From the NCBI GenBank assembly GCA_905215645.1, contig CAJMQS010000002.1, positions 65,186 through 129,185 on the forward strand: DNA of 64,000 nucleotides, read 5' to 3'. The DNA comes from an uncultured bacterium (GTDB lineage: Bacteria > Bacillota > Negativicutes > Acidaminococcales > Acidaminococcaceae). The notes beneath the pieces were generated by a model. That model was not told the DNA's origin. It was given only the letters and a program-made list of their open reading frames with translations, and ran no database searches. This document shows positions 4,909 through 48,262 of the stretch, piece by piece. The position numbers and the translations under genes are program-made. Position 1 is the first letter of the stretch, and every line of letters begins with the position of its first letter.

Positions 4909-6180
4909 TCAGCCAACCCGCTGGATGTCGGCTCCCAGTCCGGTCAGCTTGGCGACCAGATTCTCGTAACCCCGATCGATATGATAGATATCGGTGATTT
5001 CCGTTACGCCGTCAGCCACCAGCCCGGCCAGCACCATGGCTGCCCCAGCCCGCAGGTCCGTGGCCCGGACCTGGCAGCCGTACAGTTTGGGCACCCCTTC
5101 CACAATGGCTGCCCGCCCGCCGCTGGTCCGGATATTGGCTCCCATCCGGAGCAGTTCATCCACATGCATGAAGCGGTTCTCAAAAACAGTCTCCAAGACG
5201 GAACTCTGACCTTTAGCGATGCACATCATCGCCATGACCTGGGCCTGCATATCTGTGGGGAAGCCTGGATAGGGCAGGGTCTTGATGGTGATGGCCTGGA
5301 GCTCTTTAGGCCCCACCACATGGACGCTGCTGATGTCTTCTTCTACAACGGCCCCGGCTTCCCGGAGTTTGGCAATGAGAGGCTTCATGTGTTCGCAGAG
5401 CACATTATCCACCAGGATATCCCCCTGGGTCATAGCACCCGCCACCATGAAGGTCCCTGCTTCGATCCGGTCAGGGATCACTGTATGTTCCCCGCCTTTC
5501 ATGCTTTCCACTCCATCAATCCGGATGGCCGTCGTCCCGGCTCCCCGGACCTTGCCCCCCATCACATTGATGTAGTTGGCCAGGTCTACGATTTCTGGTT
5601 CCTGGGCTGCATTTTCAATGATGGTGGTCCCCTTGGCCATGGAGGCGGCCATCATCAGGTTTTCCGTGGCTCCCACGCTGGGGAAATCCAGATAAATGGT
5701 GGTGCCCACCAGCCCATGAGGTGCAAAAGCCTCGATATACCCATGGCCCTGTTCGATCTTCGCTCCCAAGGCCTCGAAGCCTTTCAGATGGATATCGATG
5801 GGCCGGGTCCCGATGGCACAGCCTCCCGGTTGGGAGATTTTGGCCCGTCCAATCCGCGCCAGGAGGGAGCCCATGACCAGGAAAGAAGCACGCATGGTGC
5901 TCACCAGATCATAGGGAGCTTCCCATCCGGTGATCCGCCGGCTGTCGATTTTCAACGCATGGGGGGTGGAATGATCCACTTTCAGCCCCAAGCATTCCAG
6001 TACCTTGCAGATGGTGCTGACATCTTCCAATTCAGGGACTTCCAAAATCGTGCTGCCTTCCGTCCCCAGGACAGAAGCTGCAATGATGGGCAATACCGCA
6101 TTTTTGGCACCGCTGACCCGTACCGTGCCCTTCAGGTGATGACCACCCTTTACCACCAGTTTCTCCACTCCTGATTCCAC
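4909..6180 (-). CDS. murA: UDP-N-acetylglucosamine 1-carboxyvinyltransferase
   Basis: Full-length MurA similarity (KLVVKGG..., catalytic Cys region). The ORF-track start at 6255 is a GTG with no RBS. The true start is probably GTG near 6168-6180, after AGGAAAGG. Confidence 0.85.
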
Positions 6181-6230: not shown

Positions 6231-6671
6231 TCATTGATGATAGCGAATGCCCCACAGCTTGGCATGCCGTTTTTGCTGGTTGCTCAGCTGTTCATCCAGG
6301 TGCAGGCGCATTTCCTTCTGTTCTTTTTCCCGCAGGCTCTTTTTCCTGGCAGCTTCCGCCGGGTCTTCCAGAGCTTGTTTTCTCTTTTTTTCTTCCCAAT
6401 GCTGTTTTTCCCGTTCCGCCTTTTCCCTGCGTTTCCGGGAAATTTCTCTGGCCCTCGCCTCTGCCTGCTGCCGGGGGGTCAGCTGATGCTGATACAGGAA
6501 CTGTGCGCGCCTGATCAGGTACAGCGGGACCACCAGGGGCATGAGCAGAAACGTCCCCAGGACCCAGAGATTCTTGTGTTTCATCCCAATGCTGTGGCTG
6601 TCCAGGAAAACCACCCAGGTCACCAGACAGCAGACCACCAAAGCAATCACATTGGACAAGCCGTACGGCAC
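6231..6671 (-). CDS. hypothetical membrane protein with Lys/Glu-rich coiled-coil tail
   Basis: 146-aa ORF with two TM segments then a [11 protein letters not shown]...-rich tail. Weak RBS. Sits between atpC and murA. Confidence 0.4.
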
Positions 6672-6770
6672 CCCCCTTAATGTCTACGGAACTTCCCACT
6701 TCCAACTTCTCTGTCCATTTTTATAACTAGATTATTATACCATAGAACATTCTGTTTTCCATAGAGGGAA

Positions 6771-6800
6771 ATAAAAAAAGGAACCGCCCGGGCGGTTCCT
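6771..6800 (-). terminator. rho-independent terminator after the atp operon and small ORF
   Basis: Perfect stem GGAACCGCC-CGG-GCGGTTCC, followed on the minus strand by a T7 run. Confidence 0.8.
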
Positions 6801-6803
6801 CCT

Positions 6804-6995
6804 TCAAAAATTCCTCGTATGGGTCCGCAGACGGTCCGCCAGGATATTGTAGTATACTTCCTTTTCCTGAATGGTCTTCCGAAGCTTACGGATCTGTTCT
6901 TCATTGGTGGCTTCTGCCAGCCGCTCGTTGAGTTCGACCAGTTCCAGCCGCAGCTGTCCCATCTTACTGGCAGCCATTTTGCTGATAAAGTCCAC
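6804..6995 (-). CDS. small hypothetical protein downstream of atpC
   Basis: ORF 6804..7022. Best start is GTG at 6995 after GAGGGGGGA with 6-nt spacing. Predicted coiled coil. Confidence 0.35.
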   Translation of the reverse strand: MDFISKMAASKMGQLRLELVELNERLAEATNEEQIRKLRKTIQEKEVYYNILADRLRTHTRNF

Positions 6996-7042
6996 AGCGG
7001 ATCCCCCCTCTGCCTGCTGCAATGACCTTCTGTCCTACCGGA

Positions 7043-7483
7043 CTACTCCCCCACCGGATAAGGCGGCACCTTACCCACCAGAGACGCGGTCTTCAGCCGC
7101 GCTTCCGCCCTGCGCAGGATTTTTTCAGTATGTTCCACGTCCGTCAGGGCATCCGGATGCTCCAGTCTGGCCAATGCTTCCTGCCGGATCTGCTGGTATT
7201 TGGCCACATCGATGTTCTCTGCTTTCTGGGCCCTGGGTGTCAGGATGACCACCTGGTTGTCCTTGACCTCCGCAAATCCCCCTTCTACGTAGACCAGGAT
7301 CACCTGATTGTCCTTATCCTGCAGCTTCAGGGTCCCTTCCCCCAGCACAGCGATCATCGGGCTGTGGTTGGCTAAGATCCCAACGCCCCCATTTACTGTA
7401 TTCAACAAGACATAGGAAATATCCTCCCTCTTGACCAAAAGTTTTTCAGGTGTGAGGACTTCCAATTTCATTAATCTGGCCAT
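7043..7483 (-). CDS. atpC: F-type ATP synthase subunit epsilon
   Basis: MARLMKLEVLTPEK... typical epsilon N-terminus. Operon position. Confidence 0.9.
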   Translation of the reverse strand: MARLMKLEVLTPEKLLVKREDISYVLLNTVNGGVGILANHSPMIAVLGEGTLKLQDKDNQVILVYVEGGFAEVKDNQVVILTPRAQKAENIDVAKYQQIRQEALARLEHPDALTDVEHTEKILRRAEARLKTASLVGKVPPYPVGE

Positions 7484-7484
7484 A

Positions 7485-9883
<2,399 letters not shown>

Positions 9884-15998: not shown

Positions 15999-16235
15999 AA
16001 AACAAGCCTTTCTGCGGGATTCCCGCCCAGGGAACTGTTATTTCTTTCCCTTTTTCTATGATTTCATTCTGCTCTTTTACTCATACAGATTTATTATAGT
16101 ACAGTTTGGGAAAATCTACAATTTCTTCCCCCGCTCCTTTGTGACAATTTTACCATATTTTCTCTTTCCCATCCTGCAGTTCCGGTTTACAGCTTGCCTG
16201 TCACGTGCTAAACTGAAGCCATCGGAGGTGTTTCT

Positions 16236-16775
16236 ATGCATGAATTGATCCAGCTGTTCACGGTATTCGCCCGTATCGGAGCAGTCACTTTCGGAGGCGG
16301 CTATGCCATGCTGCCCATTCTCCAGGCTGAAGTCGTAGAAAAATACCATTGGGCTACCGAGGAAGAACTGGCTGACTACTATGCAGTGGGACAGTGCACC
16401 CCCGGCGTCATTGCCGTCAATACGGCCACTTTCATCGGCATGAAGCGGAAAGGGATCCCCGGCGGGCTCATCGCAACACTTGGCGTGGTCTTCCCTTCCC
16501 TGGTGATCATCACACTCATTGCCGCTTTCCTTTCCAATTTTGCGCAGATCCAATTCGTCAAAGATGCCTTCGCCGGGATCAGGGTCTGCGTCTGTGTGCT
16601 GATTTTCAACGCCATCAAGAAACTGGCCAAGGGAGCCCTGGTGGACAAGCTGACCATCCTGCTGTTCCTGGTGGTCATGGGGATCAACCTGTTTTCCAAT
16701 CTTTCTCCGGCCTGGCTGGTGGTCCTTTCCGGGATTGTGGGGCTGGCCGCGAAAAAAGCAGGAGGTGAATTGTAA
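16236..16775 (+). CDS. chrA: chromate transporter ChrA family, short-chain half 1
   Basis: CHR-family signature (GAVTFGGGYAMLP). 179 aa. Overlaps the stop of the next ORF. Confidence 0.8.
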   Translation: MHELIQLFTVFARIGAVTFGGGYAMLPILQAEVVEKYHWATEEELADYYAVGQCTPGVIAVNTATFIGMKRKGIPGGLIATLGVVFPSLVIITLIAAFLSNFAQIQFVKDAFAGIRVCVCVLIFNAIKKLAKGALVDKLTILLFLVVMGINLFSNLSPAWLVVLSGIVGLAAKKAGGEL

Positions 16776-17347
16776 TGGGGCTTCTCTTCCAACTTTTCTA
16801 TGAATTTTTCAAGATCGGCCTTTTCGCCATCGGCGGCGGCATGGCCACCATCCCCTTCCTGACCAAGCTGTCGGCGGCTACCGGCTGGTTCACGGAGACG
16901 GACCTGCTGAACATGATCGCCGTTTCCGAATCCACTCCCGGTCCCATCGGGGTCAATACGGCCACCTATGTAGGGTATCACATCGCCGGCCTACAGGGAG
17001 CCGTGATCGCCACGTTGGGCCTCATCACGCCCTCCATCATCGTAATCATCATCGTCTCCCAATTCCTGAAAAAATTCGGGGACAGCAAATATGTGAAAGC
17101 CGTGATGTATGGTCTGCGGGCTGCTTCGGCCGGCTTGATCGCCGCCGCAGGCTTCCTGGTCGCCCGGGTCACCCTGCTCCATCCAGAAGCCTGGAAGGCG
17201 GGGAACCTGTCCGGTCTCCTGAACCTGCCCTCCATCCTCTTGGCCGTGATTTTGTTCCTGCTCACCAATCGGTATAAAAAGATCCATCCCATCGCTTTCC
17301 TGGCCGCTTCGGCTGTAGTAGGCGTAGTGTTCCATTTTGCAGGGTAA
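16775..17347 (+). CDS. chrA: chromate transporter ChrA family, short-chain half 2
   Basis: Second CHR half (FAIGGGMATIPFL). Its start overlaps the preceding stop. Confidence 0.8.
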   Translation: MGLLFQLFYEFFKIGLFAIGGGMATIPFLTKLSAATGWFTETDLLNMIAVSESTPGPIGVNTATYVGYHIAGLQGAVIATLGLITPSIIVIIIVSQFLKKFGDSKYVKAVMYGLRAASAGLIAAAGFLVARVTLLHPEAWKAGNLSGLLNLPSILLAVILFLLTNRYKKIHPIAFLAASAVVGVVFHFAG

Positions 17348-36569: not shown

Positions 36570-38132
36570 TTGCTGCAGATTTCTGAAACTGCCAAAGAAA
36601 AAATCCGCGGCCAATTCCCGATTTTCCAGGAAGCGGCCCATGCTTTTTATGCCAAAGAACTGCCTCCGGGCAAATACAAGGGGACTTCCGGGAAATTCGG
36701 CTCCTATGGAGAACGGGGCGCCAACAGCAGCATGCTCCGGCTCCGTTTTTCCGGCGGAGCCATCAGCCAGGCCCACATGGCTTTCCTGGCCCAGGCTATC
36801 GATAAATACCAGGTGACCCTAGCCCACTTCACCACCGGGGAAGCCCTCCAGCTCCACCATCTAGGGGAACAGACAGTCCTGAATCTCTATCAAGACTGCT
36901 TCAACCAAGGCATCTACTGTGCCGGTGCCGGCGGGGACAATCCCCGGAACATCACGGCCAGCCCTCTCCATGGAGTGGAAAAAGGCGAACCCTTTGACAT
37001 GACCCCGGCCATCCGGGCTGCTTCCAGCTTTGTCATCAACCTGATCCCGGAACTGAAGCTGCCCCGGAAGTACAAGATCAGCTTTCCCAACGGGATCGAC
37101 AACGAAGGCCATGCCACCTTCAAAGATCTAGGTTTTGTAGCCCGTCCAGACGGCACTTTCGACGTGTATGCCGGCGGCGGTTTCGGCGTCAACGGCAGCC
37201 GGTTCGGGGTCCTCATCGATACCCAGGTGGATCCCCGGGACCTGTCCTGGTACATCCTGGGCTATGCCCGGGACGTGTACATGAAATACGGAGACTATCA
37301 GCATCGGGGTACAGCCCGTTCCCGGTTCATCCTGGCCAAAATGGGTGAAGATCCTTTCCGGCAGGCTGTCCGGGACGCAGCAGCCCGTTGCCGGGAAGAA
37401 GGGATTCCCCGGCTGGAACTGGAACCCATCCCGCCCCTGGCCAAAACTGGAAAAGACGATTCCGTCCTGACGGATCCCCGGATCCGCAGCCAGAAACAAG
37501 AAGGGCTGTACTATGTAGAATACAAACCCCTGGGCGGTGTGCCGGATATCCAGGTGTTCCAGCAGCTGCTGAAAGAAGCCTCGCAGATGGAAGGAGCCCA
37601 GCTGCGGCTGAACGCGGACGAAACTTGCTACATCATCAACCTGACAGCGGAAGAAGCCCGGAAGATCGCAGCCCTGACAAAAAAAGACACAGCTCATACC
37701 GCCTTTGAACATTCCGTCAGCTGCATCGGTGCTACCGTTTGCCAGCAGGGACTGTGCGATTCCCACGGGACCCTGGCCCGGATTGCAGCATTCCTGAAAG
37801 AACAGGGCGTGGATACCCGGTATCTGCCCAAATGCCATTTTTCCGGCTGCCCTTCCACCTGTACCGTCCAGTCCCTGGCAGCGTTGGGTTTCCGGGGCGC
37901 TTTCACCCTAGTGAATGGAGAACGGGCCAGTGCCTTCCAGATATACGCCGGCGGAAACTATGCCTACGGAAAAGAAAAGATCAGCGAGCCCCTGGCCCTC
38001 ATCGCCACCGCCCGACTGCCCCGCTTTTTCCTGGATCTGAACCAGATCCTACTGGATGCCAAGCAGCCTTTCTCCCAATGGTATCCGGATCATGAGGATG
38101 AGTTTTTGGAACTACTGAAGAAATATGCGTAA
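36570..38132 (+). CDS. nitrite/sulfite reductase-family protein (ferredoxin-like half domain plus siroheme/4Fe-4S domain)
   Basis: NIR_SIR and NIR_SIR_ferr domain pattern with Cys cluster (CIGATVC...C...CPSTC). TTG start after GAAGGAG. Confidence 0.65.
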   Translation: MLQISETAKEKIRGQFPIFQEAAHAFYAKELPPGKYKGTSGKFGSYGERGANSSMLRLRFSGGAISQAHMAFLAQAIDKYQVTLAHFTTGEALQLHHLGEQTVLNLYQDCFNQGIYCAGAGGDNPRNITASPLHGVEKGEPFDMTPAIRAASSFVINLIPELKLPRKYKISFPNGIDNEGHATFKDLGFVARPDGTFDVYAGGGFGVNGSRFGVLIDTQVDPRDLSWYILGYARDVYMKYGDYQHRGTARSRFILAKMGEDPFRQAVRDAAARCREEGIPRLELEPIPPLAKTGKDDSVLTDPRIRSQKQEGLYYVEYKPLGGVPDIQVFQQLLKEASQMEGAQLRLNADETCYIINLTAEEARKIAALTKKDTAHTAFEHSVSCIGATVCQQGLCDSHGTLARIAAFLKEQGVDTRYLPKCHFSGCPSTCTVQSLAALGFRGAFTLVNGERASAFQIYAGGNYAYGKEKISEPLALIATARLPRFFLDLNQILLDAKQPFSQWYPDHEDEFLELLKKYA

Positions 38133-38144
38133 TATTATGGTTTA

Positions 38145-38200
38145 AACAAACAATCCGTCAAAGCTCTTCAATGTCGGCAGAGTTTTGACGGATTATTTGT
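38145..38200. terminator. long-stem bidirectional terminator hairpin
   Basis: Inverted repeat ACAAACAATCCGTCAAAG ... TTTTGACGGATTATTTGT (18 bp arms, 2 mismatches). Sits between convergent genes. Confidence 0.75.
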
Positions 38201-38240
38201 TTATATGATAAAGGAGACTTGATTGCAAAATAAGTCAGAG

Positions 38241-40175
38241 TCACTTATCATTCTCATCCATATTTTCCAGTAATTTTCCAGACTTAATGAGTCCATACGC
38301 TTTTTGGATATCTTCCTGTATAGGGCGCAACCCCTCTAGTGTCGGGATTATACTGCGAATCGTATCGTATGCTTTCTGTGTATATCTGCCCAACCTCACA
38401 TTCCCCCTCAAATCCACAGCCTGTGCTGCATAAAGTGCTTCCATGCCCACAAGATACCGTAGATTATCGACCAGGTGCAGAGCTTTCGTTGTAACAAGAG
38501 GCAAGTTGCTGGCGTGATCTTCAATATAGCCTTCGATAGCAAAAAAATCAACAGAGGAAGGCGTTATGAGGAATCGATTTTCCGCATCTAAAGCAGAAAA
38601 AGCATCCTGAATCTGGGAATACCCATAGGATTCTCCATTTCTCGGTGCTAAAAAGCGGGTTAGACCTGTAAAATCAGGGTCTGCCATTTTTATCATGCGG
38701 TAATTAATCGTCCTGGACAGATGCCCCAAAGCGATAGAAAGCATCTCCACGGCTACAGCCAAGGAAGTCGTTTCAAAGTTGGATGTTACATACAGTTCCT
38801 GGGTTTCCGGGATAATACAAGGATTATCAGACGGTGAATTAATCTGGATTGCAAGGAACTTCTTAACCACTTCCAACGCATCTGTCACCGTTCCTGTAAT
38901 GGTAAAGCCTCCCCGGAAACTCAGGGAATCCTGAAGCGCTCGTTTGGAGTCCTTATCATACAGATAGCTGTCTTCCAAAAATTTCCGGCAACGGGCAGCA
39001 CACTTTTTCTGTCCTGGAAGCCCTCTCAGAGTATTGACATCCTGGCGCATGGCCTCGATGTTACCATTCAACCCTTCATAATCCAGACAATAAACCAAAT
39101 CAGACATAAAAAGTAAATCTTCAACTTCCTTTACCAAGATGGCTGTTGTACCTTCCCCCTGAGAATTGGAAAGCATAACCGTATGGGCATCTTTCAGCTG
39201 CCAATGATAAGGTTCCAGTCCTTCCTGTTCCATGGCCTCTCTGGCGCTTGTCTGCTGTCCCTTATAGTATACCTGGTTTTCTCCTGCAAAAGCCATCCCG
39301 ATATGGGTAATGGTCGTAATATCAGCTTCCCCAACTGATCCACGCCGGGGAACGCAAGGAGTAATTCCACGGTTCAGGAATTCTTTATATAAGTCAACCA
39401 GTTCGTCACTTGCACAAGAAGCCCCGATAAGCAGCGTATTCAGTCGGATGGCCATCATAGCTCGTACTTCTTCTATCGTATTGTAAGGTGGATATCCCAA
39501 TGCATGACTATAAATGACTTTTCTGTTTTCTTTTTCGATAAGGTTTTCTTTTACATCTCTGTCTTTATTCCACCCAACGCCTCGATTATACCCATAGATT
39601 GGCTTCCCATCATGGGCCAACCGTTCCATCGTCTCGCGGCCTCGTTTTACCCGGTTCCATGCTTCTGGTTCAATAGCTACAGGATATCCTTCATAGGCAA
39701 TGAGGTTCAAATCATGAAGCGTAAGATTATGCCCATTTAAAAGAATTGGTTCCATTCTCTGACTCCTTTCCACTATTTCAATTGTTTGTCTCGTCGTATC
39801 CAGCCTGACGGTATCTCCCCTTCGCACTTTTCTGTAAAAATAAGGATCCACCCTATCCACCATAGGGACACCCATGATGATTGCAGTGGAAACCAATACC
39901 GTATCCGGTTCTTCTACAATAAAAGCCCGCGGAGCCGTTCCATGCTTTTCCAATTGATAGAGCCCGTCCATCTGGACAACAGAGCTACCTTTGCCACCCG
40001 GAAATACCAGTATCTTATCTTTGATGCTGATTCCATTAAGACAGTGATCTCGTTCCATAACTACACCGTCTTCAGGACGCACATGATAAAAAAGAATTTG
40101 ATCTGAGGAAATAAGGATTTCACCCTCAGCCGTACCTTTGGCTATTTCTCTGCACGCAAACACATTCATCATCAT
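38241..40175 (-). CDS. fusion protein: aconitase-X small 'swivel' subunit (DUF126) plus HAL/PAL-family lyase-like domain lacking the MIO triad
   Basis: N-terminal ~135 aa carry KILVFPGGKGSSV...PRAFIV (AcnX swivel signature). The rest keeps the HAL fold (GSVG..., QDSLSFRG, SDNPC, EGYIEDHASN), but the Ala-Ser-Gly MIO precursor reads Glu-Ala-Asp. Start after GGGAAAGG. Overlaps the upstream AcnX-L gene by ~4-10 nt. Confidence 0.65.
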   Translation of the reverse strand: MMMNVFACREIAKGTAEGEILISSDQILFYHVRPEDGVVMERDHCLNGISIKDKILVFPGGKGSSVVQMDGLYQLEKHGTAPRAFIVEEPDTVLVSTAIIMGVPMVDRVDPYFYRKVRRGDTVRLDTTRQTIEIVERSQRMEPILLNGHNLTLHDLNLIAYEGYPVAIEPEAWNRVKRGRETMERLAHDGKPIYGYNRGVGWNKDRDVKENLIEKENRKVIYSHALGYPPYNTIEEVRAMMAIRLNTLLIGASCASDELVDLYKEFLNRGITPCVPRRGSVGEADITTITHIGMAFAGENQVYYKGQQTSAREAMEQEGLEPYHWQLKDAHTVMLSNSQGEGTTAILVKEVEDLLFMSDLVYCLDYEGLNGNIEAMRQDVNTLRGLPGQKKCAARCRKFLEDSYLYDKDSKRALQDSLSFRGGFTITGTVTDALEVVKKFLAIQINSPSDNPCIIPETQELYVTSNFETTSLAVAVEMLSIALGHLSRTINYRMIKMADPDFTGLTRFLAPRNGESYGYSQIQDAFSALDAENRFLITPSSVDFFAIEGYIEDHASNLPLVTTKALHLVDNLRYLVGMEALYAAQAVDLRGNVRLGRYTQKAYDTIRSIIPTLEGLRPIQEDIQKAYGLIKSGKLLENMDENDK

Positions 40176-41395
40176 CCACATACCTTTCCCAAAATAGCCT
40201 CATAAATACATTGTTCCACATCCTGAACCGTCAGTGTCACACCTGCACTCGTCATATAATAGGCTGCTTTAGGCGAATCTGTAACACCTAACAAGCCTTT
40301 GAGAAAATGCCAGCAATTGACTTCATCCACACAAGTATGAGGAATTAACTTACCACCCAATCGCTGGATCTGGGCCTGCAGGCCATTTTTATCTGCCTGT
40401 TCAATGACTTCAACGGAAGTCAGGATATAAATGGGGACAGCCGCTGGCTTAGTAAGCAGACGACCTACCCGTTCCACCTGGGAATACGTATAATGCGGAC
40501 AGCCCAAGATGCAGAAAGATATTTTTTGGCCGGATACTGGATGCTCTTTGGCTCGCAGATCATCCAAATCACCTTGTGTTATCCTAACCGTACGTAGCGG
40601 AGCTTGATTTCCAAAAGCATCCTTTTCATCTCGCACCAAAGGAGTCACCCCTGGCACGGCATAAATATCATAATTGCCAGAAACATTTAAAGAAGCCCCT
40701 AAAGCAATCAGTGCTTCCACAGGAATCAATTGAGGCAAGCCGAAGAAAACTGGATTTCCTCGTCCTATTTTCTTTCCAAGCATTCCTAACAGAGCAAAAT
40801 CTCCCTCTTTCTCTACCCTGGCATCTACTTCAACCGCTACGGTCCCAAATCGGTTCTTTTCAAAGAGCATCCCATATTCTGGCACGCATCCAGTGATGGC
40901 CGCACATAAAGCACTGGCAGCACTTTCTCGATTGGTTTTTGCTCCCAGGACGGCGTTCACGAAAATTGTTGCACTAGTTTCAGAGAATGCACACACTTCA
41001 TTTTTTCTCGGCTTGTTGCTGTATAGGTAAGGAGTACAACAATAAGTCATCGTAGCACCAAGTTCTCTATACACTTGATCTACCCGTTCCATATGAGTCT
41101 TTGCTGTATCCGATAGGATCGACGCAAATGTGCCCACAGAGTATCCTGGATTGACCGTTGGAGAGAGCCTGCAGACTGCTCCGGCCGACAAAAGACGGCT
41201 GGCAAACCATAAATCCGCCTCCTGTGCACTCAGTGAAACATGTGCTTTTTGGATAGGGACCATACGAGGTGCATCAAAGCATTTAGCAATTCCGACCTGG
41301 ATTTCCATGGCAAGGGCTACGCCCTTACCGTAAACACCATCCAGCATTTTTTGCTGCTCATCGGACAGGATCATTCCTCCAACCTCCCTGTTCAA
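40172..41395 (-). CDS. aconitase-X catalytic (large) subunit, DUF521/AcnX family
   Basis: N-terminal LSDEQQKMLDGVYGKGVALAMEIQV motif typical of AcnX large subunits. 407 aa. Start overlaps the stop of the upstream gene (ATGA). Confidence 0.6.
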   Translation of the reverse strand: MNREVGGMILSDEQQKMLDGVYGKGVALAMEIQVGIAKCFDAPRMVPIQKAHVSLSAQEADLWFASRLLSAGAVCRLSPTVNPGYSVGTFASILSDTAKTHMERVDQVYRELGATMTYCCTPYLYSNKPRKNEVCAFSETSATIFVNAVLGAKTNRESAASALCAAITGCVPEYGMLFEKNRFGTVAVEVDARVEKEGDFALLGMLGKKIGRGNPVFFGLPQLIPVEALIALGASLNVSGNYDIYAVPGVTPLVRDEKDAFGNQAPLRTVRITQGDLDDLRAKEHPVSGQKISFCILGCPHYTYSQVERVGRLLTKPAAVPIYILTSVEVIEQADKNGLQAQIQRLGGKLIPHTCVDEVNCWHFLKGLLGVTDSPKAAYYMTSAGVTLTVQDVEQCIYEAILGKVCG

Positions 41396-42312
41396 TTATG
41401 CTTATCCACAGAAAGGTTCCCCGCTTCCTTATCATATCCAGAGTAAAACCCTCTTCCCGATTTCATGCCCAATTGGCCTCGCTCAATCATTTCTTTTAGT
41501 TTTGCGGGAGGTTTATCCCGTTCTTCTCCACTTGCCTCATAATACGATATTTCGATATTATAGATTGTATCGAGTCCAATAAGGTCCATAAGCTGGAATG
41601 GGCCGATATTGGTATTCCATTCCATTTTCCAGCCACGATCAAACTCTGCTGGATCCACATATCCATCAGCCCAAAGATGGAGACATTCCCGTTTGACAGC
41701 ACGCCATACACGATTGATTGAATAGCCTTTAATTTCTTTTTCAGTAATAACTGGTTCGAACCCCAATGTGTGATAATGGGCTATAGCCGCTTTCTTTGTT
41801 TTTTCTGAAGTGCTGGCATTCCACATCATTTCAAGATAATTATTGCGGATCGGATCATCATGATCAACGGAAAAGGTACACTTCCTGCGTTCCGGAGAAA
41901 CACGTGCATAAATATCACTCATAAGCAATGATGAAGTATTGGAATTGAGCAAACATCCAGGTGGACAAATTTTATCCAGCTGTTCAAATATATCTTGTTT
42001 CAAAGCTAATTTTTCAGGGACATTCTCCACAACAAGTTCTGCATCCTGACAGGCTTCTTCCAGACTCCTTGCATAACGGATACGGTTCTTTACCCCATTG
42101 GCTTCTTCTGCATTCAGTCTGCCTTCCTGGATAAAGTAAGTCAGCCATTTCTCCACCTTTGCCTGACAAGTCAAAATAGATTTTTCGGTCCGACTGTAGC
42201 CCGTAACTTGTTTTCCATACAAAGCATTCCGAAAAGCAATCATGGAACCTTGCGTTCCAATTCCCACAATCGTTACATTTTTAATTTTATCAACTCCAAT
42301 AGGTATTGCCAT
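41392..42312 (-). CDS. 3-hydroxyacyl-CoA dehydrogenase-family oxidoreductase (3HCDH / L-carnitine dehydrogenase-like)
   Basis: Rossmann N-terminus (VTIVGIGTQGSMIA) and C-terminal GPFQLMDLIGLD motif of the 3HCDH family. Strong RBS. Confidence 0.7.
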   Translation of the reverse strand: MAIPIGVDKIKNVTIVGIGTQGSMIAFRNALYGKQVTGYSRTEKSILTCQAKVEKWLTYFIQEGRLNAEEANGVKNRIRYARSLEEACQDAELVVENVPEKLALKQDIFEQLDKICPPGCLLNSNTSSLLMSDIYARVSPERRKCTFSVDHDDPIRNNYLEMMWNASTSEKTKKAAIAHYHTLGFEPVITEKEIKGYSINRVWRAVKRECLHLWADGYVDPAEFDRGWKMEWNTNIGPFQLMDLIGLDTIYNIEISYYEASGEERDKPPAKLKEMIERGQLGMKSGRGFYSGYDKEAGNLSVDKHN

Positions 42313-42360
42313 AAATCTTCATCCTTTCCTTCCTGAACCTGTAAATAAATACTTATTAAA

Positions 42361-42903
42361 TTAAAAAGTCCTTTCGATGATATTTCCATCGGCCGGGATT
42401 GCTATGTAGCGGACTTTTGTATTTTCTACAAGTTCTCCATAAAAAGCAATGTAATAGGGACGATAGATGGAACGCAGCTGTAAAACCTCCAAGGTGACAT
42501 AACTTCCAATTTGTCGTCTGATCATCCGTCCAGCCAATCTTTTGGCATTTTCAATCAGCTTGTCCTGGGGAATTTCTGTCGTTTGCACCTGTGCCGGATC
42601 TGTAATTTGCAGAGATTGCGTCTTTATTGGTTTTTCTAAATAAGCTGGCGTTCCTCTGGTTCCTTCTGCCAGCATGAGGATTTTCTGTTTCCGGGGAAGA
42701 GATTCCTTTTGGGTAAAGATTTTCCGTAGAAAAGTGTCCATATATGTCATTTCAAAAGTAATTTCCTTACTTTCGATATACATCAATTTCAAGTTTATTT
42801 TCTTTTTCCCCAGAAGAAGGCGCCCCAGGAAATTGCCTCTTTTCTCGGCCACTTCCATAGCTTCTTCTTCGTTCATCGTCTTGGGTACCACTTGTATTTT
42901 CAT
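42361..42903 (-). CDS. hypothetical protein (no recognisable family)
   Basis: 180-aa ORF with GGGGGAG RBS, inside the operon. Confidence 0.45.
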   Translation of the reverse strand: MKIQVVPKTMNEEEAMEVAEKRGNFLGRLLLGKKKINLKLMYIESKEITFEMTYMDTFLRKIFTQKESLPRKQKILMLAEGTRGTPAYLEKPIKTQSLQITDPAQVQTTEIPQDKLIENAKRLAGRMIRRQIGSYVTLEVLQLRSIYRPYYIAFYGELVENTKVRYIAIPADGNIIERTF

Positions 42904-42933
42904 ATATCTCCCCCTGTTAGGAATTTTCTCTCC

Positions 42934-44577
42934 TCAGGCTTTTCTTTTGCTGAATTCCCGTACTTCAAACCAGTAGCGGGCGAATACACCAAATGTGATC
43001 AGCATGGCAATGCCCGGTGCCAAAATACCTACAAGAGCATCGACCTGATGGACCATGCCATAACCGAAGATGATCGCCAAAACAGCATAGAGAGCGACCA
43101 AAGCTCCATCTACACCGAACCATTCCACCGGCTCAATCTGCTGTTCTCCAGAGGAACCAACAGAGTCATCACAATATACTTTTCCAAATCGGTTGCCAAT
43201 CACATAGGTGATAAAAGAAATAGGCAAGGCAATGAGGAGAGCATCCACCTTTCCTCCCAGGATATCAATGGAAATCGGATAATAATTAAAGTAAATCCAA
43301 GATAGAGAGCCAAAAATCATGCTGGACAAGCCACCCACATCTGTTTTTCTGGAATCTGAAAGGATTGCACCCAATACCGGAACAAAAAGGCCACACATAG
43401 ACAAACTGTTGATGAAAAGGAATGCATCATACACAAGGGGAAAGCTGAACGCCGTTCCGAGTCCGATGATACCGAATATAATACAGCTGATTCTTGTAAT
43501 GTTGATACTTTGTCTGTCCGACAGAGGATGTTTACGATAGACATTGATGATGTCCCGGGATACAATTTCTCCTCCAATCAAGAAATACGAATCGATTGTA
43601 GAAATAATGGCACCCATGATTCCGAAAACAAAAAGGCCTCTTAGCACAACCGGTAAATTAGAAAGGACCAGCTGCACATAGGCGACTTCCGGCTGGATTT
43701 CCAGTCCAGGATGGATCGTACGGATAAGCATTGCCGTAGTGATCAGAACCATGTCGAAAGAAAGCCAGATGGAGAAACACATCAGCATAGCCCGTTTTCC
43801 CGTACGAGGTGAATTAGCTGCGGTAAAGCGCTGATAAAAAGATGGATCCTTATATACATTGATACACAATACGACAAGGCAGATAGCCCGTCCAACTGGA
43901 GTCCCGCCCAATGGGGTCAACATTTGAGGAGCAACTTGGCTTAATACCTGGTTGATACCTGCAAATCCTCCTACTCCAAAGTAAACTTGGGGAAAAGCGG
44001 CGCAGACAGATGTAATCATCAGAAAAAAGAAAATCATATCCGTTGCAGCTACACCCATAAGTCCGCCTAAACAAGTGATACCAGTGGAAATAATAACCAC
44101 AGCAGCTGCAACCAAAAATTTATTTGCATTCCAGGCAGCCACGCCCACATAGCCAGTCGCTGCGATTTCTGCAATAGAAAGACATGATACAACGAGGATA
44201 ACAGCTCCAATCAAAGAAGCGGTTCTTCCATAATATCGATTGATCAGTTCCGTCATTGTCGTATTCACTTTTACGGAAATACGAGGTGCTACCCAAAGTG
44301 CCAGAGGAAAGCGGACCAGATGAGCACAAATGGACCAAATAAAGAAAGCTGAGACACCCATCGTCGTTGCATAGCCAATGGTCCCAATGACACCAGCCCC
44401 TCCGTACCAGGATGCTACAAGCGTCCCGACTGCCAGAGACCAGGGAATCGACTTATTTGCTTGATAGAAACTATCCATATTCCGAGAAGTTTTGCTAAAA
44501 TGTTTTCCTACTAGGAATATGCCGATGACACACAACAGAACGGTAAGATTGTCAAGAAACGTTAACATACCCTTCAC
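42934..44577 (-). CDS. sodium:solute symporter (SSS family)
   Basis: 547 aa, ~13 TM, SSS-type topology and motifs. Confidence 0.75.
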   Translation of the reverse strand: MKGMLTFLDNLTVLLCVIGIFLVGKHFSKTSRNMDSFYQANKSIPWSLAVGTLVASWYGGAGVIGTIGYATTMGVSAFFIWSICAHLVRFPLALWVAPRISVKVNTTMTELINRYYGRTASLIGAVILVVSCLSIAEIAATGYVGVAAWNANKFLVAAAVVIISTGITCLGGLMGVAATDMIFFFLMITSVCAAFPQVYFGVGGFAGINQVLSQVAPQMLTPLGGTPVGRAICLVVLCINVYKDPSFYQRFTAANSPRTGKRAMLMCFSIWLSFDMVLITTAMLIRTIHPGLEIQPEVAYVQLVLSNLPVVLRGLFVFGIMGAIISTIDSYFLIGGEIVSRDIINVYRKHPLSDRQSINITRISCIIFGIIGLGTAFSFPLVYDAFLFINSLSMCGLFVPVLGAILSDSRKTDVGGLSSMIFGSLSWIYFNYYPISIDILGGKVDALLIALPISFITYVIGNRFGKVYCDDSVGSSGEQQIEPVEWFGVDGALVALYAVLAIIFGYGMVHQVDALVGILAPGIAMLITFGVFARYWFEVREFSKRKA

Positions 44578-44585
44578 TTCCTTTT

Positions 44586-46112
44586 CTAAAATTGCAGTTT
44601 ACCTACGACGGTTTCCACCACATCTATATATTTTCTCTCTTTGATTTGAGCAGACACACTTTCAATCAAGGGAGTAAGCGGAGCATCTGTTTCCAAGACA
44701 GGAACAACTTGTCGTAAAAGCTGATATACCTTCCCTGTAGCAGAAGATGGAGCAAGCATGTCATAGCAATCAAGTGCCTGCCCATCACAGATCAATTCAA
44801 TGGCAATGATATAGCTCCCCATTTGTATTAAATCGTACGCTTTTTTTGCTGCATTATATCCCATACTGATATAATCTTCTTGGTTCGCACATGTAGTTAA
44901 ATTATCCACCACAGCTGGATGAGAAAGGATTCTCATTTCTCCCAGCAGACCTGCAGCAGTATATTGGATCATCATAAGGCCATCATTATATTCCGCATTC
45001 TTGTTTAAGAAAGCAGGAAGTTCACTGACAAGACGATTCAATAGCCTATCGATACGGCTTGCAGTCATTTTACATAAATCGGTCATTGCGATTGCAAGGA
45101 AATCAGATGCCATTCCCAGATAAGAACCATCTGCATTACAACCCATCAAAGCAACAGCTTTCCCGTTATTTTCTTCAAAAATCAAAGGATTATCCACCGA
45201 AGAATTCAATTCAATGGCCAAAGACTGCAATCCATCTTTGACCGCTTTTTTTACGGCCCCATGCAGTTGGGGAATACAACGGATGGACAATGCATCCTGC
45301 ACACGATGGCCACGATATTTTTCTACAATCTCACTGTCCTGCAAAATGGCCCGCACGTTACTGGCAGTCCTGACTTGATCCACATGTGGCCGCGCTTCCA
45401 TAATACGGTCATCCATAGCCATCAAAGTCCCTTTGAGCACTTCCAGGCTAAAGGCACCGCTGATATCTGCTGTCAACGCCAGAGTTACTGCATCATACAG
45501 TGCAAGTGCAGCAAAAGCAGTTACAGAAGTCGTTCCAGAAACAATAGTCAATCCCTCTTTGGAAGAAAGAACAATTGGCTCAAGTCCAGCCTGAAACAAG
45601 GCTTCTTCCCCACTTAACAGTTTTCCCTTGTACCAAGCTTTTCCTTCCCCAATAAGGACCATACCAATGTGGGCTTCAAGAGAAATATATCCAACGGAGC
45701 CATGTCCTGGAACTCTTGGAACAACGTTCCGATTTAACATTTCTTTTAAAAGTTCCAGTGTTTCCAATCTGATTCCCGTATGTCCAGATCCAAAATGCAA
45801 CAGCATTACAAACATCATAGCTCTGGTACATTCTTCATTGATTGGCTCTCCCACAGCACAGGTATGGGCAAGGATATGATTCCTCTGGATATGGATCCGG
45901 TCTTCTTCCGGAATGAATTTTCTCCAATTGTCGCCCAATCCTGTCGTCACACCATAAATTGGAATTCCTCCTTTGCTGAATTCATCTACAAAATCTCGGC
46001 ATTTTTGAACTCGTTGGATATATTCATCTGAAAATGCAACTTGACTGTGATATCTTGCCACAGAAACTACATCTTCCAATGTATTCTTTCCATCCAGTAT
46101 AATGATTTTCAT
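44586..46112 (-). CDS. HAL/PAL-family (aromatic amino-acid lyase fold) protein lacking the MIO-forming Ala-Ser-Gly triad
   Basis: Conserved HAL blocks (GHGSVG..., QDALSIRCIPQLHGA, VDNPL, NQEDYISMG), but the MIO tripeptide position reads Tyr-Ile-Ser. The ORF-track start at 46136 is a TTG. ATG at ~46112 (MKIIILDGK) follows GAAAGGAA. Confidence 0.7.
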   Translation of the reverse strand: MKIIILDGKNTLEDVVSVARYHSQVAFSDEYIQRVQKCRDFVDEFSKGGIPIYGVTTGLGDNWRKFIPEEDRIHIQRNHILAHTCAVGEPINEECTRAMMFVMLLHFGSGHTGIRLETLELLKEMLNRNVVPRVPGHGSVGYISLEAHIGMVLIGEGKAWYKGKLLSGEEALFQAGLEPIVLSSKEGLTIVSGTTSVTAFAALALYDAVTLALTADISGAFSLEVLKGTLMAMDDRIMEARPHVDQVRTASNVRAILQDSEIVEKYRGHRVQDALSIRCIPQLHGAVKKAVKDGLQSLAIELNSSVDNPLIFEENNGKAVALMGCNADGSYLGMASDFLAIAMTDLCKMTASRIDRLLNRLVSELPAFLNKNAEYNDGLMMIQYTAAGLLGEMRILSHPAVVDNLTTCANQEDYISMGYNAAKKAYDLIQMGSYIIAIELICDGQALDCYDMLAPSSATGKVYQLLRQVVPVLETDAPLTPLIESVSAQIKERKYIDVVETVVGKLQF

Positions 46113-46169
46113 CTTCTTATTCCTTTCTCTTATCAAATCATCTATGAAAGTCTATCTTTATAAATTTAT

Positions 46170-46185
46170 TGCAAATACCTTGCCA
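46170..46185 (-). promoter_or_regulatory. sigma-54 (-24/-12) promoter
   Basis: Minus-sense TGGCAAGGTATTTGCA gives GG-N10-GC with TGGCA / TTGCA elements, ~57 nt upstream of the HAL-like gene ATG. Confidence 0.7.
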
Positions 46186-46229
46186 AAATCATGAAATGTG
46201 TTTCAGAGTTAAAAAATATATCTTTTATT

Positions 46230-46247
46230 TTCTGGTTTATACCAGAA
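46230..46247. promoter_or_regulatory. palindrome TTCTGGTTTATACCAGAA, candidate enhancer (UAS) site for the sigma-54 activator
   Basis: Perfect 6-bp arms, about 45 bp upstream of the -24 element. Confidence 0.3.
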
Positions 46248-46328
46248 ATCTACAAATAATGTCATTTCAAAGTCCTTTATTATGAAAAAAGCAGTTGCCC
46301 ATCACCATTTTAGAGAATGCCTTATAGC

Positions 46329-46370
46329 AAAAAAATCTGGCTGCCAAAATCTCTGGCGCCAGATTTTTTA
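46329..46370 (-). terminator. terminator of the sigma-54 activator gene
   Basis: AATCTGGC...GCCAGATT hairpin, including the TCTGGCGCCAGA palindrome, followed by a T7 run on the minus strand. Confidence 0.6.
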
Positions 46371-48053
46371 TTCTTTTTCTTCCTTAATTCCAAACTTTCG
46401 TAAATGATATTGAAAATTCTGCCGTGACAAATGCAATTTAGCTGCTGCCTTTGTCACATTTTTCCCACAAGCCTGGTACGTTTCCCAAAGGATACTTTTT
46501 TCATATTCATTGACAAGTTCTGTCAGCCCCTTTTCATTTTTATTAGGAACCTCCGTAACAAGAGGTTGGGGATGTTGTTGCAACACGGAATCTTTTTTAG
46601 CATGACGAAGGAAGTAATAAGGAAAATCACTCTCATCAAGGGTCCCATCTTTAGAAAGACTCATTGCATAGCCCAGAATGTGGAAAAGTTCCCGTACATT
46701 CCCGGGCCACTGATGCTCTCTAAGCCGTTGCCAAAATCCGGGCGTAATTTTCCGAATAGGCATTCCAGCATACTGAGGATAATTATCAATAAAGAAATGG
46801 ACAAGCTCGGGCAGATCCTCCAGTCGATTCCGCAAAGGGGGGATTTCAATAATAACAGAAGCCAGGCGAAAGAACAAATCCTGCCGCATCTTTCCATTCT
46901 GGCTCATTACATATGCGTCCTCATTGGTTGAAGAAATGACCCGGACATCAACAGGAATATACTTTGTACTGCCAATGCGCTGCAGAGTATGCTCCTGCAG
47001 AACTCTGAGCAATTTCGCCTGCATAGCAGAGCTCATTGAATTGACTTCATCCAAAAAAAGTGTTCCATGATTTGCTGCTTCAATCAGTCCGATTTGATCC
47101 GAACTTCCAGTAAAAGCCCCCTTCACTGTCCCGAAAAGCATACTCTCTATTAAAGATTCTGGAAAAGCTGCACAGTTGACAGCAATGAATTTTTCTCGGC
47201 GTCGAGAGCTGTATTGATGGATGCTCTGTGCAAATATCTCCTTCCCGCTGCCCGTTTCTCCTTGTATTAAAATATTGATATCCCGTTCTGCCATCCGCTT
47301 TGCTAACTGGATGGTATTTTGCAAAGCTCCTGAAGAACCAATCAAATCATCGAATGTGTAGTGGACTTCCTTGCTCACCGCAAATCGTTCCGTCATATGC
47401 CGAGTCAGGATTTCTTCTATTTGCTTCAATTCAGAAATCTGAGATTTGACTGCGTTCATATCCTGCTCAACAGAAACAGCTCCTAGAATAGACCCATCTT
47501 CTCGGAATACAGGATATCCTTCTGTCACTGTCATCAGATCCTTGCCCGTTGTCGATTTGTACCGATCATATCGATGATGGACGTTACTCAGATTCCTAAG
47601 GACTGTTAAAATAGCACTATAATTTGGGTCAACATGAAAAATATCCAACAAATTTTGTCCTTCGACAGATTCCTTAAGAGAGATTCCCAGAAGATGCTTG
47701 CTTGCTTTATTGAAAAATTGAATGGTTCCATCTTGGGCATATAGCTGAATCACATTGGGAGATTGATCAAGAACTGCTTCCATGAGTTTTTCCCGGACCG
47801 ACTCTTGCCGAAGCAATAAACAGATTCCGTAAAATACTTGAAAAGATATATACGAAAAGCGTCTTTCAAGCCACTGGACTTCTCCCGCTTCTGGTCGGAA
47901 TACCATACTGCTCACTTCAGAAAGTTTCTGACCGATTAAATTTCTGCAAACCATTCTGATTTCCGAATTTTCTCCTAATTTACTGCCAAATTCTACTTGT
48001 CGTACAAATCCTCCTTCACTCAAAAGTAATGCGATATCAAAAATCACCTCCAT
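46368..48053 (-). CDS. sigma-54-dependent transcriptional activator (sensor/PAS + AAA+ + Fis-type HTH)
   Basis: GETGSGKE Walker A, GAFTGS sigma-54 contact motif, arginine finger region, C-terminal HTH (AAKLHLSRQNFQYHLRKFGI). Start after GGGAGGGAG RBS. Confidence 0.85.
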   Translation of the reverse strand: MEVIFDIALLLSEGGFVRQVEFGSKLGENSEIRMVCRNLIGQKLSEVSSMVFRPEAGEVQWLERRFSYISFQVFYGICLLLRQESVREKLMEAVLDQSPNVIQLYAQDGTIQFFNKASKHLLGISLKESVEGQNLLDIFHVDPNYSAILTVLRNLSNVHHRYDRYKSTTGKDLMTVTEGYPVFREDGSILGAVSVEQDMNAVKSQISELKQIEEILTRHMTERFAVSKEVHYTFDDLIGSSGALQNTIQLAKRMAERDINILIQGETGSGKEIFAQSIHQYSSRRREKFIAVNCAAFPESLIESMLFGTVKGAFTGSSDQIGLIEAANHGTLFLDEVNSMSSAMQAKLLRVLQEHTLQRIGSTKYIPVDVRVISSTNEDAYVMSQNGKMRQDLFFRLASVIIEIPPLRNRLEDLPELVHFFIDNYPQYAGMPIRKITPGFWQRLREHQWPGNVRELFHILGYAMSLSKDGTLDESDFPYYFLRHAKKDSVLQQHPQPLVTEVPNKNEKGLTELVNEYEKSILWETYQACGKNVTKAAAKLHLSRQNFQYHLRKFGIKEEKE

Positions 48054-48262
48054 CGCTATTCTCCCTCCCTGCTTTTATCCTTTGCTTAGTATACCATGGA
48101 ATTCCGCAATGAAAAAAGCTGTATTCTATTACGGCATTCTCCAGTAGCAATGAATCCCCCTTTGTTCATCTTTTTTTCTCTTTTCTGCCCCACTTTTTCT
48201 TCAACTTCGTCTTATGATGTATACTCAGTATTGTATGCATCAAAGAAAGGCAGGAAAAAGGA

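Follow-up and report, generated by a model that had tools for sequence, protein, structure and literature searches.

An AcnX small subunit joined to a putative trimethylamine-releasing lyase in an Acidaminococcaceae operon

Introduction

What might a bacterium do with a single protein that carries the small subunit of an AcnX hydro-lyase at one end and a domain of the histidine ammonia-lyase (HAL) fold at the other, and how would such a protein arise? The question is raised by one gene in a 64,000-nucleotide stretch of DNA from an uncultured member of the Acidaminococcaceae (GenBank assembly GCA_905215645.1, contig CAJMQS010000002.1, positions 65,186 to 129,185), hereafter called the window. 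A sequence-only reading of the window had described the gene as an AcnX swivel subunit fused to a HAL-like domain unable to form the 4-methylideneimidazole-5-one (MIO) cofactor, and had supposed that the fusion tethers a lyase-like module to the AcnX dehydratase, possibly for substrate channeling or as a non-catalytic scaffold. As judged from sequence, two adjacent genes of a conserved operon have merged in frame, and have done so recently. A reading of the whole as such a merger within a σ54-controlled, betaine-catabolic operon is considered rather probable.

Architecture of the Fused Gene

The gene lies on the minus strand, where one open reading frame (ORF) without internal stop codons encodes 646 amino acids from its first methionine, Met1. 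Its parts are assigned as follows, with clade A defined further below.

38241..40181, minus strand: acnX-S::trimethylammonia-lyase fused gene (ORF, two Pfam domains, start-region sequence)
39768..40169, minus strand: AcnX swivel (small-subunit) domain, residues ~5-138 (PF01989, NF003046, alignment with 7cnr_B and AF0055)
39747..39767, minus strand: linker R139-S-Q-R-M-E-P145 (DNA alignment with the unfused locus L008; predicted local distance difference test, pLDDT)
38244..39746, minus strand: predicted MIO-less trimethylammonia-lyase domain of clade A, ergothionase family, residues 146-646 (PF00221, 6s7j, Foldseek)

The presence of both domains in one ORF is borne out by the Pfam profiles AcnX_swivel_put (PF01989; residues 32-108, 87 bits against a cut-off of 27), which marks the N-terminal region as AcnX-swivel-like, and Lyase_aromatic (PF00221; residues 153-609, 400 bits against a cut-off of 27), which is covered over its full length. 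The NCBIfam DUF126 model NF003046 matches residues 8-138 with a score of 114.7, below its equivalog cut-off of 163. Each of the motifs on which the fusion was originally recognized (KILVFPGGKGSSV, PRAFIV, GSVG, QDSLSFRG, SDNPC, and EGYIEDHASN) was found in the ORF, and the residues at the MIO position are G284-E285-A286-D287, in agreement with the claim that Glu-Ala-Asp replaces the triad and that no MIO can form. The predicted structure consists of two confidently folded domains with a disordered stretch of linker between them, and has pLDDT values of 75-90 in the swivel domain and <50 at residues 139-142. Public databases name the fused protein only as an “aromatic amino acid lyase.”

The start codon first called for the gene, at 40175, is the third Met of the ORF, and its ATG shares letters with the stop codon of the preceding gene for the AcnX large subunit (AcnX-L) as ATGA. 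The likely start is this Met3 or Met4 at 40172, and the orthologue of Acidaminococcus massiliensis, P0001, begins at the equivalent of Met4. The reported overlap of a few nucleotides between the two genes thus amounts to 4 nt counted from Met3 and to 10 nt from Met1. Because the AcnX-L TGA overlaps the third ATG, translational coupling of the fused gene to AcnX-L, which had also been suggested, is plausible and probably occurs.

Origin and Distribution of the Fusion

The fused protein is encoded, at 93% identity, in the genome of A. massiliensis, with which the window is collinear at ~91% nucleotide identity over a low-GC island containing the gene and over both flanks; the source of the window is a close relative of this species. 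The 90% cluster of the fused protein comprises 80 member sequences on 46 contigs. An artifact of sequencing, frameshift, or assembly was rejected on the grounds that the fused form occurs in an independent genome and on these 46 contigs and that the junction mutation is defined; no stop or frameshift separates the domains within the ORF.

The junction can be read from unfused relatives. In Oscillibacter, Pseudoflavonifractor, Blautia, and others, the genes stand in the order dehydrogenase, AcnX-L, AcnX small subunit (AcnX-S; 137-138 amino acids), and lyase, with AcnX-S and the lyase separated by spacers of 3-35 nt or overlapping in different frames. In the unfused locus L008 of an uncultured Acidaminococcus, the lyase of which is 81% identical, AcnX-S terminates in “...KRS-TGA,” and 3 nt past this stop the lyase begins in a different frame. 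Alignment of the DNA indicates that a change of TGA to CAG plus a 1-nt deletion joined the two frames, and the linker Arg139-Ser-Gln-Arg-Met-Glu-Pro145 is the old intergenic spacer, now translated. The old Shine-Dalgarno sequence GGAAAGGAG (39763..39771) is still present inside the fused ORF, as is the former start codon of the lyase, Met143 (39753..39755). Since both survive, free lyase may also be produced by internal initiation at Met143.

A search for the same fusion in other genomes found it in A. massiliensis and found further fusions in Lachnospiraceae and in proteins P0003 and P0004. These are polyphyletic: the Acidaminococcus fusion involves an Asp-type lyase (named for a residue discussed below), that of Lachnospiraceae an Asn-type lyase, and that of P0003 another subclade, and P0004 is set apart from an unfused genome copy of 99% identity by the loss of 16 nt, the stop codon included. 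Four independent fusions were counted in this way, in Acidaminococcus and at least three other lineages. Clustered at 50%, the entire clade is reduced to one unfused representative, from which the number of fusion lineages is not countable. As the whole clade falls under an unfused representative, the fused state is that of a minority and is recently derived.

Other fusions of HAL-family lyases were seen as well. Among P0143, P0151, and P0156 of the representative library, an N-terminal cyclic-nucleotide-binding domain precedes the lyase domain (682-696 amino acids), and one protein of 1206 residues has a C-terminal FAD/NAD-binding domain.

The Lyase Half

The nearest solved structure to the lyase half is that of Treponema denticola ergothionase (6s7j; E 4e-158, 48-49% identity), to which it aligns without gaps across residues 146-638 and on which its predicted structure is superimposed with a template modeling (TM) score of 0.93 (Foldseek, target TM). 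The two proteins share fold and family, lack MIO, and carry instead an acidic E-x-D triad, E285-A286-D287 being aligned to Glu-Gly-Asp of the T. denticola enzyme. They also share Tyr196 as the catalytic base, the residues that bind the carboxylate (Arg423 and Asn453) and the imidazole (His226 and Glu554), and a Leu at the position of HAL Tyr280 (Leu420), all of which are conserved across 100+ family members. Alignment with the HAL family, proposed at the outset as a check, therefore finds the MIO triad absent and the other catalytic residues of the ergothionase family present.

Within the HAL family, the branch without MIO comprises ergothionase and the recently described histidine-betaine lyases, for which trimethylamine is a good leaving group and an electrophilic cofactor is not required (bioRxiv 10.64898/2026.04.22.720169; 10.1101/2025.08.13.670108). 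As the MIO-less state is the norm in the ergothionase family, a missing MIO is no sign of a non-catalytic module, and the suggestion that the domain serves as a non-catalytic scaffold was not upheld, since the catalytic Tyr is kept along with the residues binding carboxylate and imidazole. On these residues the lyase half counts as a full member of the MIO-less trimethylammonia-lyase (ergothionase) family. Assignment as a histidine ammonia-lyase (HutH) was rejected: Ala-Ser-Gly is lacking, the TIGR01225 score is 311.7 against a cut-off of 539, and Leu420 replaces Tyr280.

The lyase half differs from T. denticola ergothionase in its fusion to an AcnX small subunit and at Lys384, the column of which is occupied by Asp526 in the family alignment. 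Lys384 of the T. denticola enzyme holds the thiolate of ergothioneine, and ergothionase activity is reportedly lost when this residue is replaced; the same position is Asn in the histidine-betaine lyase Swoo_3913 and Gln in the N-π-methyl-histidine-betaine lyase SO_3299 (bioRxiv 10.1101/2025.08.13.670108; 10.64898/2026.04.22.720169). Compared by description, these two Shewanella enzymes resemble the fused lyase as MIO-less HAL-family proteins with a non-basic residue at the ergothionase Lys, and they release trimethylamine from non-thiolated histidine betaines. They are periplasmic, however, and coupled to flavocytochrome urocanate-type reductases for respiration, whereas the fused lyase is cytoplasmic, has Asp at the Lys position, and has AcnX and a dehydrogenase for partners.

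The AcnX Halves

The partner of the swivel domain is encoded immediately upstream.

40172..41395, minus strand: putative AcnX large subunit, 407 amino acids, [4Fe-4S] type (PF04412 345 bits; 7cnr_A E 2.4e-56)

The roles of AcnX residues are taken from published work (Watanabe et al., 2021; PMC8184944). Mapped on 7cnr_A, AcnX-L has Cys120, Cys299, Cys355, Glu139, Lys376, and Tyr380, and its three Cys residues align with the cluster ligands Cys110, Cys283, and Cys342 of TkAcnX. The swivel domain aligns with the TkAcnX small subunit (7cnr_B; E 2.9e-22), as the sequence-only reading had led one to expect, and with AF0055. Its catalytic Ser66, in GKG-S66-S67-V68, is aligned with Ser62(S) of TkAcnX and Ser70 of AtAcnX, and its Tyr32 occupies a substrate-contact position. 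Because the catalytic Ser, the three Cys, and the Glu, Lys, and Tyr are kept, the core catalytic machinery of a [4Fe-4S]-type AcnX hydro-lyase is intact. An AcnX small subunit must dock on AcnX-L to supply the catalytic Ser, and the fusion would thereby tether the lyase to the AcnX enzyme, which supports the physical linkage originally proposed.

Both characterized AcnX enzymes are dehydratases of 3-hydroxy acids, and some bacterial Type-II subclasses have been termed uncharacterized (Watanabe et al., 2021; PMC8184944). TkAcnX (phosphomevalonate dehydratase, 7CNR) shares the three cluster Cys, the Glu, Lys, and Tyr, and the swivel Ser, but its small subunit is a separate chain and it has a phosphate-binding loop (Ala47-Ser50) and Asn53. 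In AcnX-L, a 4-residue deletion spans the phosphate-binding Gly48-Val49-Ser50 loop and Asn53 is replaced by Ala, for which reasons a Type IIb phosphomevalonate dehydratase was rejected and mevalonate 5-phosphate is an improbable substrate. In the hydroxyproline-type AcnX, as in the fused protein, the swivel stands at the N-terminus of a longer chain and is fused with the downstream neighbor gene, although there it is joined to its own large subunit and here to a different enzyme. The residues of that enzyme that bind the ring nitrogen and ring of cis-3-hydroxyproline (Asp203, Thr72, and Trp35) correspond to Ser, Val68, and Tyr32 in AcnX-L and the fused protein, and hydroxyproline dehydratase was rejected as well. 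With the model NF051439, the scores of 43 and 170 stay far below the cut-off, which is 700. Since landmarks of both characterized enzymes are missing, the pair probably belongs to one of the uncharacterized bacterial Type-II subclasses, IIc-IIf. Type II is defined by a free-standing domain 4, and the swivel, free-standing in most relatives, is here joined to the lyase.

AcnX pairs of other contexts were encountered alongside. Clostridium peptidivorans and C. pascui (L086 and L087) encode pairs ~50% identical to that of the window, in the gene order GntR, TRAP transporter, AcnX-L, AcnX-S, LarA-type racemase, D-2-hydroxyacid dehydrogenase. In these clusters, the hydro-lyase is paired with a hydroxy-acid dehydrogenase acting on an imported organic acid, and the substrate of the pathway is probably a hydroxy-dicarboxylic acid. 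In Dethiosulfatibacter aminovorans (L005, 13001..17831), two tandem, distant AcnX-L/AcnX-S pairs adjoin a methyltransferase of the MTTB (quaternary-amine) family, a few kb away from a Lys-type ergothionase. An ENA metagenome protein, P0351 (541 amino acids), is a homologue of AcnX-L (59% identity) fused to its own swivel in the order large-small, the reverse of the known Type-I AcnX (small-large).

The Operon and Its Island

The fused gene is the last of six, which run in the order lyase-2, SSF transporter, unk180, dehydrogenase, AcnX-L, AcnX-S::lyase-1 from 46136 to 38241 with spacings of -4 to 48 nt. The genes upstream of AcnX-L, with the putative promoter and regulator, are as follows.

41392..42312, minus strand: 3-hydroxyacyl-CoA-dehydrogenase (3HCDH)-family NAD dehydrogenase, 306 amino acids (PF02737, PF00725)
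42361..42903, minus strand: conserved 180-amino-acid protein, unk180 (no Pfam or NCBIfam match)
42934..44577, minus strand: sodium:solute symporter (SSF) family transporter (PF00474)
44586..46136, minus strand: lyase-2, MIO-less HAL-family paralogue, 516 amino acids (PF00221 508 bits; below the HutH cut-off)
46170..46185, minus strand: σ54-type -24/-12 promoter-like element TGGCAAGGTATTTGCA (one mismatch; 34 nt upstream of lyase-2)
46368..48053, minus strand: σ54-dependent transcriptional activator with PAS, AAA+, and HTH domains (PF00158 213 bits; PAS and HTH matches)

The nearest solved relative of the dehydrogenase is a diketoreductase (4dyd; E 8.6e-38), which acts on a non-CoA β-keto ester. 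The SSF transporter is presumed to import the substrate, and homologues of unk180 are found directly after the SSF transporter in all six clade-A loci that have them. Lyase-2 reads GSVG-Y-ISLEAH, with a 3-residue deletion at the MIO loop where Ala-Ser-Gly-Asp would stand (7tqr alignment), and has Leu at HAL Tyr280, Ala-Asp for Phe-His, and Tyr in the Lys384 column. It represents a clade of its own, seen in clade-A clusters and next to Lys-type ergothionases (Peptoniphilus, Sedimentibacter, and a second locus of A. massiliensis).

The σ54 activator gene is co-directional with the operon, and homologous activators lead the operon in Oscillibacter, Pseudoflavonifractor, and Lawsonibacter. The count of σ54 motifs across the whole window is not above chance, and it is position and orientation alone that speak for the promoter-like element. 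A scan for terminators 3' of the fused gene gave nothing convincing. The Oscillibacter and Pseudoflavonifractor operons (L001 and L010) share with the window the σ54 activator, the dehydrogenase, both AcnX subunits, and a D-type lyase (55-71% identity). They differ in that AcnX-S (137-138 amino acids) and the lyase are separate, 4 nt apart, that a second, N-type lyase comes next, and that xanthine dehydrogenase (XDH) and molybdenum-cofactor genes adjoin.

The regulator and the six-gene operon are exactly the content of the low-GC island (~38200..48100), the GC content of which is 0.40-0.45, compared with 0.53-0.60 for the flanks. The island recurs at the corresponding site in A. massiliensis with ~91% nucleotide identity and was probably acquired horizontally. 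Directly beside it, in the high-GC flank and outside the operon, lies a gene for a protein of the nitrite/sulfite-reductase family, with NIR_SIR 4Fe-4S and ferredoxin-like half domains (36570..38132, plus strand).

Two Kinds of Lyase Locus

The residue at the Lys384 column was tabulated against neighboring genes in a census of 80 loci from species-representative genomes, together with metagenomic loci. Clade A was defined by an identity of ≥54% to the lyase of the window (28 sequences, 19 non-redundant loci), and the K-type by a Lys in this column (61 loci, Treponema orthologues included). The column is D, N, or V in all 28 clade-A sequences and K in all K-type lyases; among clade-A loci, no correlation of the residue present with the presence of AcnX was established.

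The partner genes divide along the same line. A dehydrogenase gene is present at 17 of the 19 clade-A loci, the two exceptions being truncated contigs, and at 1 of 61 K-type loci. AcnX-L and AcnX-S together occur at 13/19 clade-A loci, and AcnX-L occurs at 3/61 K-type loci, as distant homologues. The SSF transporter is found at 9/19 against 1/61, and unk180 homologues at six clade-A loci and no K-type locus. A polyferredoxin-like protein of about 305-323 amino acids with several 4Fe-4S motifs accompanies 9 of the 19 clade-A loci and none of the K-type loci (for example, L007 at ~6577..7695, L089 at 15999..16970, and L090 at 5092..6009); it is not in the window. K-type loci, exemplified by Blautia celeris, Dethiosulfatibacter, and the second locus of A. 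massiliensis, instead carry a BCCT transporter (52/61), an XDH-family molybdoenzyme trio (about 46-50/61), and a BTAD/TPR regulator (31/61). Neither the BCCT transporter nor the XDH-family molybdoenzyme was found in the window. Ergothionase and the fused gene thus keep different company, a BCCT transporter and an XDH-family molybdoenzyme on the one hand, and a 3HCDH-type dehydrogenase, AcnX, and an SSF transporter on the other; because its partners differ from those of the K-type loci, the window island is a different module.

Two clade-A loci stand among genes of histidine utilization (Hut). In L089, the lyase and dehydrogenase genes lie among those for urocanase, imidazolonepropionase, and formiminotransferase-cyclodeaminase, and in L090 the pair adjoins urocanase and an OpuAC betaine-binding protein. 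The lyase clade without Lys is accordingly tied genomically to the dehydrogenase, to AcnX, and, in several genomes, to Hut genes.

The K-type loci L061 (A. massiliensis locus 2), L069, and L005 each have the BCCT transporter and a Fer2/FAD/MoCo trio of the xanthine-dehydrogenase family, along with XdhC and molybdenum-cofactor genes and often genes of the Hut end pathway. The second locus of A. massiliensis is a complete K-type locus with formiminotransferase-cyclodeaminase and FTHFS genes. An “ergothionase + reductive thiourocanate desulfhydrase” route in gut anaerobes was reportedly described by Feng et al. in JACS in 2025. We infer that the second A. massiliensis locus fits this route, and the published reductive thiourocanate desulfhydrase may well be the XDH-family molybdoenzyme. 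AcnX is an unlikely candidate for that desulfhydrase, since K-type loci carry the XDH-family molybdoenzyme (49/61) and not AcnX of the window type.

A Possible Pathway and Its Alternatives

The operon would import a histidine-derived N-trimethyl betaine without a thiolate, such as hercynine or a modified hercynine, from which the lyase domain, as a tetramer, would eliminate trimethylamine. The dehydrogenase and the AcnX-L/AcnX-S hydro-lyase would work on carbons 1-3, interconverting 3-oxo acid, 3-hydroxy acid, and 2-enoate, and the carbon would end as urocanate and then glutamate. A histidine-derived substrate and this fate are suggested by the conserved His/Glu imidazole ligands and by the Hut genes around clade-A pairs. 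In general, a trimethylammonia-lyase converts an α-betaine to a 2-enoate, and enzymes of the 3HCDH family interconvert 3-hydroxy and 3-oxo groups. AcnX enzymes interconvert a 2-enoate and a 3-hydroxy acid (PMC8184944).

These reactions can be arranged in two orders. The one tentatively favored, with less than even confidence, leads from a β-hydroxylated betaine through a 3-oxo acid and a 3-hydroxy acid to urocanate: the lyase would cleave a β-hydroxylated histidine betaine to an enol, equivalent to the 3-oxo acid, which the dehydrogenase would reduce with NADH to the 3-hydroxy acid, which AcnX would dehydrate to urocanate. It is preferred because, of the two partners, the dehydrogenase is obligate and AcnX optional, because AcnX would run in its known direction, because NADH would be consumed in a fermenter, and because Hut genes are co-located. 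The reverse, resembling β-oxidation, appears doubtful but has its merits. Hercynine or an N-methylated hercynine would yield a urocanate-type 2-enoate and trimethylamine, AcnX would hydrate the former, the dehydrogenase would oxidize the product, and the 3-oxo acid would be cleaved or decarboxylated. No exotic substrate is required, the chemistry matches that of the enzyme families, and the lyase and AcnX steps would be consecutive, in keeping with the fusion and the gene order. Yet both characterized AcnX enzymes run as dehydratases (PMC8184944), no enzyme using a β-keto acid recurs in the clusters, NADH would be made in fermenters, urocanate would be diverted from the co-located Hut genes, and the clusters with only a dehydrogenase would be left unexplained.

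Two further proposals concern the lyase itself. The 48-49% identity to ergothionase as the nearest solved structure, together with the presence in some clade-A clusters of a K-type lyase and an XDH-type enzyme, might suggest a plain ergothionase in an ergothioneine-degradation operon, in which AcnX would act on thiourocanate, perhaps as a desulfhydrase. This is improbable. A true ergothionase was rejected on account of Asp526 at the position of the reportedly essential Lys384, which is D, N, or V clade-wide, and of genomic context, given that K-type loci of 61 species carry BCCT and XDH-family proteins and almost never the dehydrogenase or AcnX, and that A. massiliensis already holds a separate, complete K-type locus. 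A dead lyase-like module, serving as a mere oligomerization scaffold for the AcnX dehydratase, has in its favor the absent MIO triad and is the least credible proposal of all: the ergothionase family does not use MIO, shows no variation in the catalytic Tyr or in the residues that bind carboxylate and imidazole, and is represented by orthologues that are stand-alone enzymes in most genomes. A degenerate HAL or scaffold was rejected on these conserved residues and on the similarity to 6s7j.

The meaning of the fusion can be weighed separately from that of the operon. Up to four AcnX-S domains, and hence AcnX-L, would be tethered to a lyase tetramer, and channeling of substrate between the fused enzymes, as first suggested, is possible, although most relatives work unfused. 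The most ambitious proposal is an undescribed anaerobic route of gut Firmicutes that includes, in Acidaminococcus, a covalently tethered lyase-tetramer/AcnX complex passing a labile intermediate; here a new specificity class of MIO-less lyase, an orphan [4Fe-4S] AcnX, and a 3-hydroxy-acid dehydrogenase would together form urocanate and trimethylamine from a modified histidine betaine. As a whole, this is speculative and unlikely to hold in every part. Alternatively, the fusion may be selectively neutral, an accident of close genes yielding no functional complex, in which the linker might even hinder AcnX assembly and Met143 would supply the lyase. Such an accident has an appreciable, if minority, chance of being the explanation: most relatives are unfused, the clade collapses to one unfused representative, the intergenic spacers are merely 3-35 nt, and a Shine-Dalgarno sequence and ATG are kept within the ORF. 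It has to contend with four independent fusions, with the persistence of the Acidaminococcus fusion in two lineages ~9% apart in nucleotides, and with an operon that has no separate copy of AcnX-S, so that the fused form must still serve AcnX-L.

Several points weigh against reading the locus as a betaine-catabolic operon with a meaningful fusion. The activities given here to the clade-A lyases, the AcnX subclass, and the dehydrogenase are predicted ones. Six of the 19 clade-A pairs of lyase and dehydrogenase have no adjoining AcnX, which is hence not obligatory, and the dehydrogenase-only clusters are fully explained by neither reaction order. The β-hydroxylated histidine betaine required by the favored order is not documented as abundant in nature, and there are no Hut genes within the window. 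Recurrent fusion may reflect the 3-35 nt gene spacing and not selection for a complex. No paper was found that links AcnX, DUF521, or DUF126 with ergothioneine, hercynine, or trimethylamine-lyases, and literature beyond that read may already assign these genes.

Concluding Remarks

The fusion is a new combination of known parts, and the module of dehydrogenase, AcnX, and Lys-less lyase appears to be uncharacterized. Both halves belong to known families, and as a “Rosetta stone” the fusion joins a subclass of AcnX to the cofactor-less trimethylamine-releasing lyases, a small and recently recognized family, in which it marks a clade with Asp, Asn, or Val at Lys384. Because genes that neighbor each other in the operon, for an AcnX small subunit and a trimethylamine-lyase, have merged, the fusion points to an undescribed route for the breakdown of a histidine-derived betaine. 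Operons of this kind are found in common human and animal gut genera, including Acidaminococcus, Oscillibacter, Pseudoflavonifractor, Blautia, and other Lachnospiraceae, and the module may be an overlooked source of trimethylamine. If trimethylamine is indeed released from dietary betaine in this way, the module would represent an additional source of the precursor of trimethylamine N-oxide (TMAO), missed by surveys based on ergothionase or CutC, and would provide the first physiological role for a bacterial Type-II AcnX beyond hydroxyproline metabolism.

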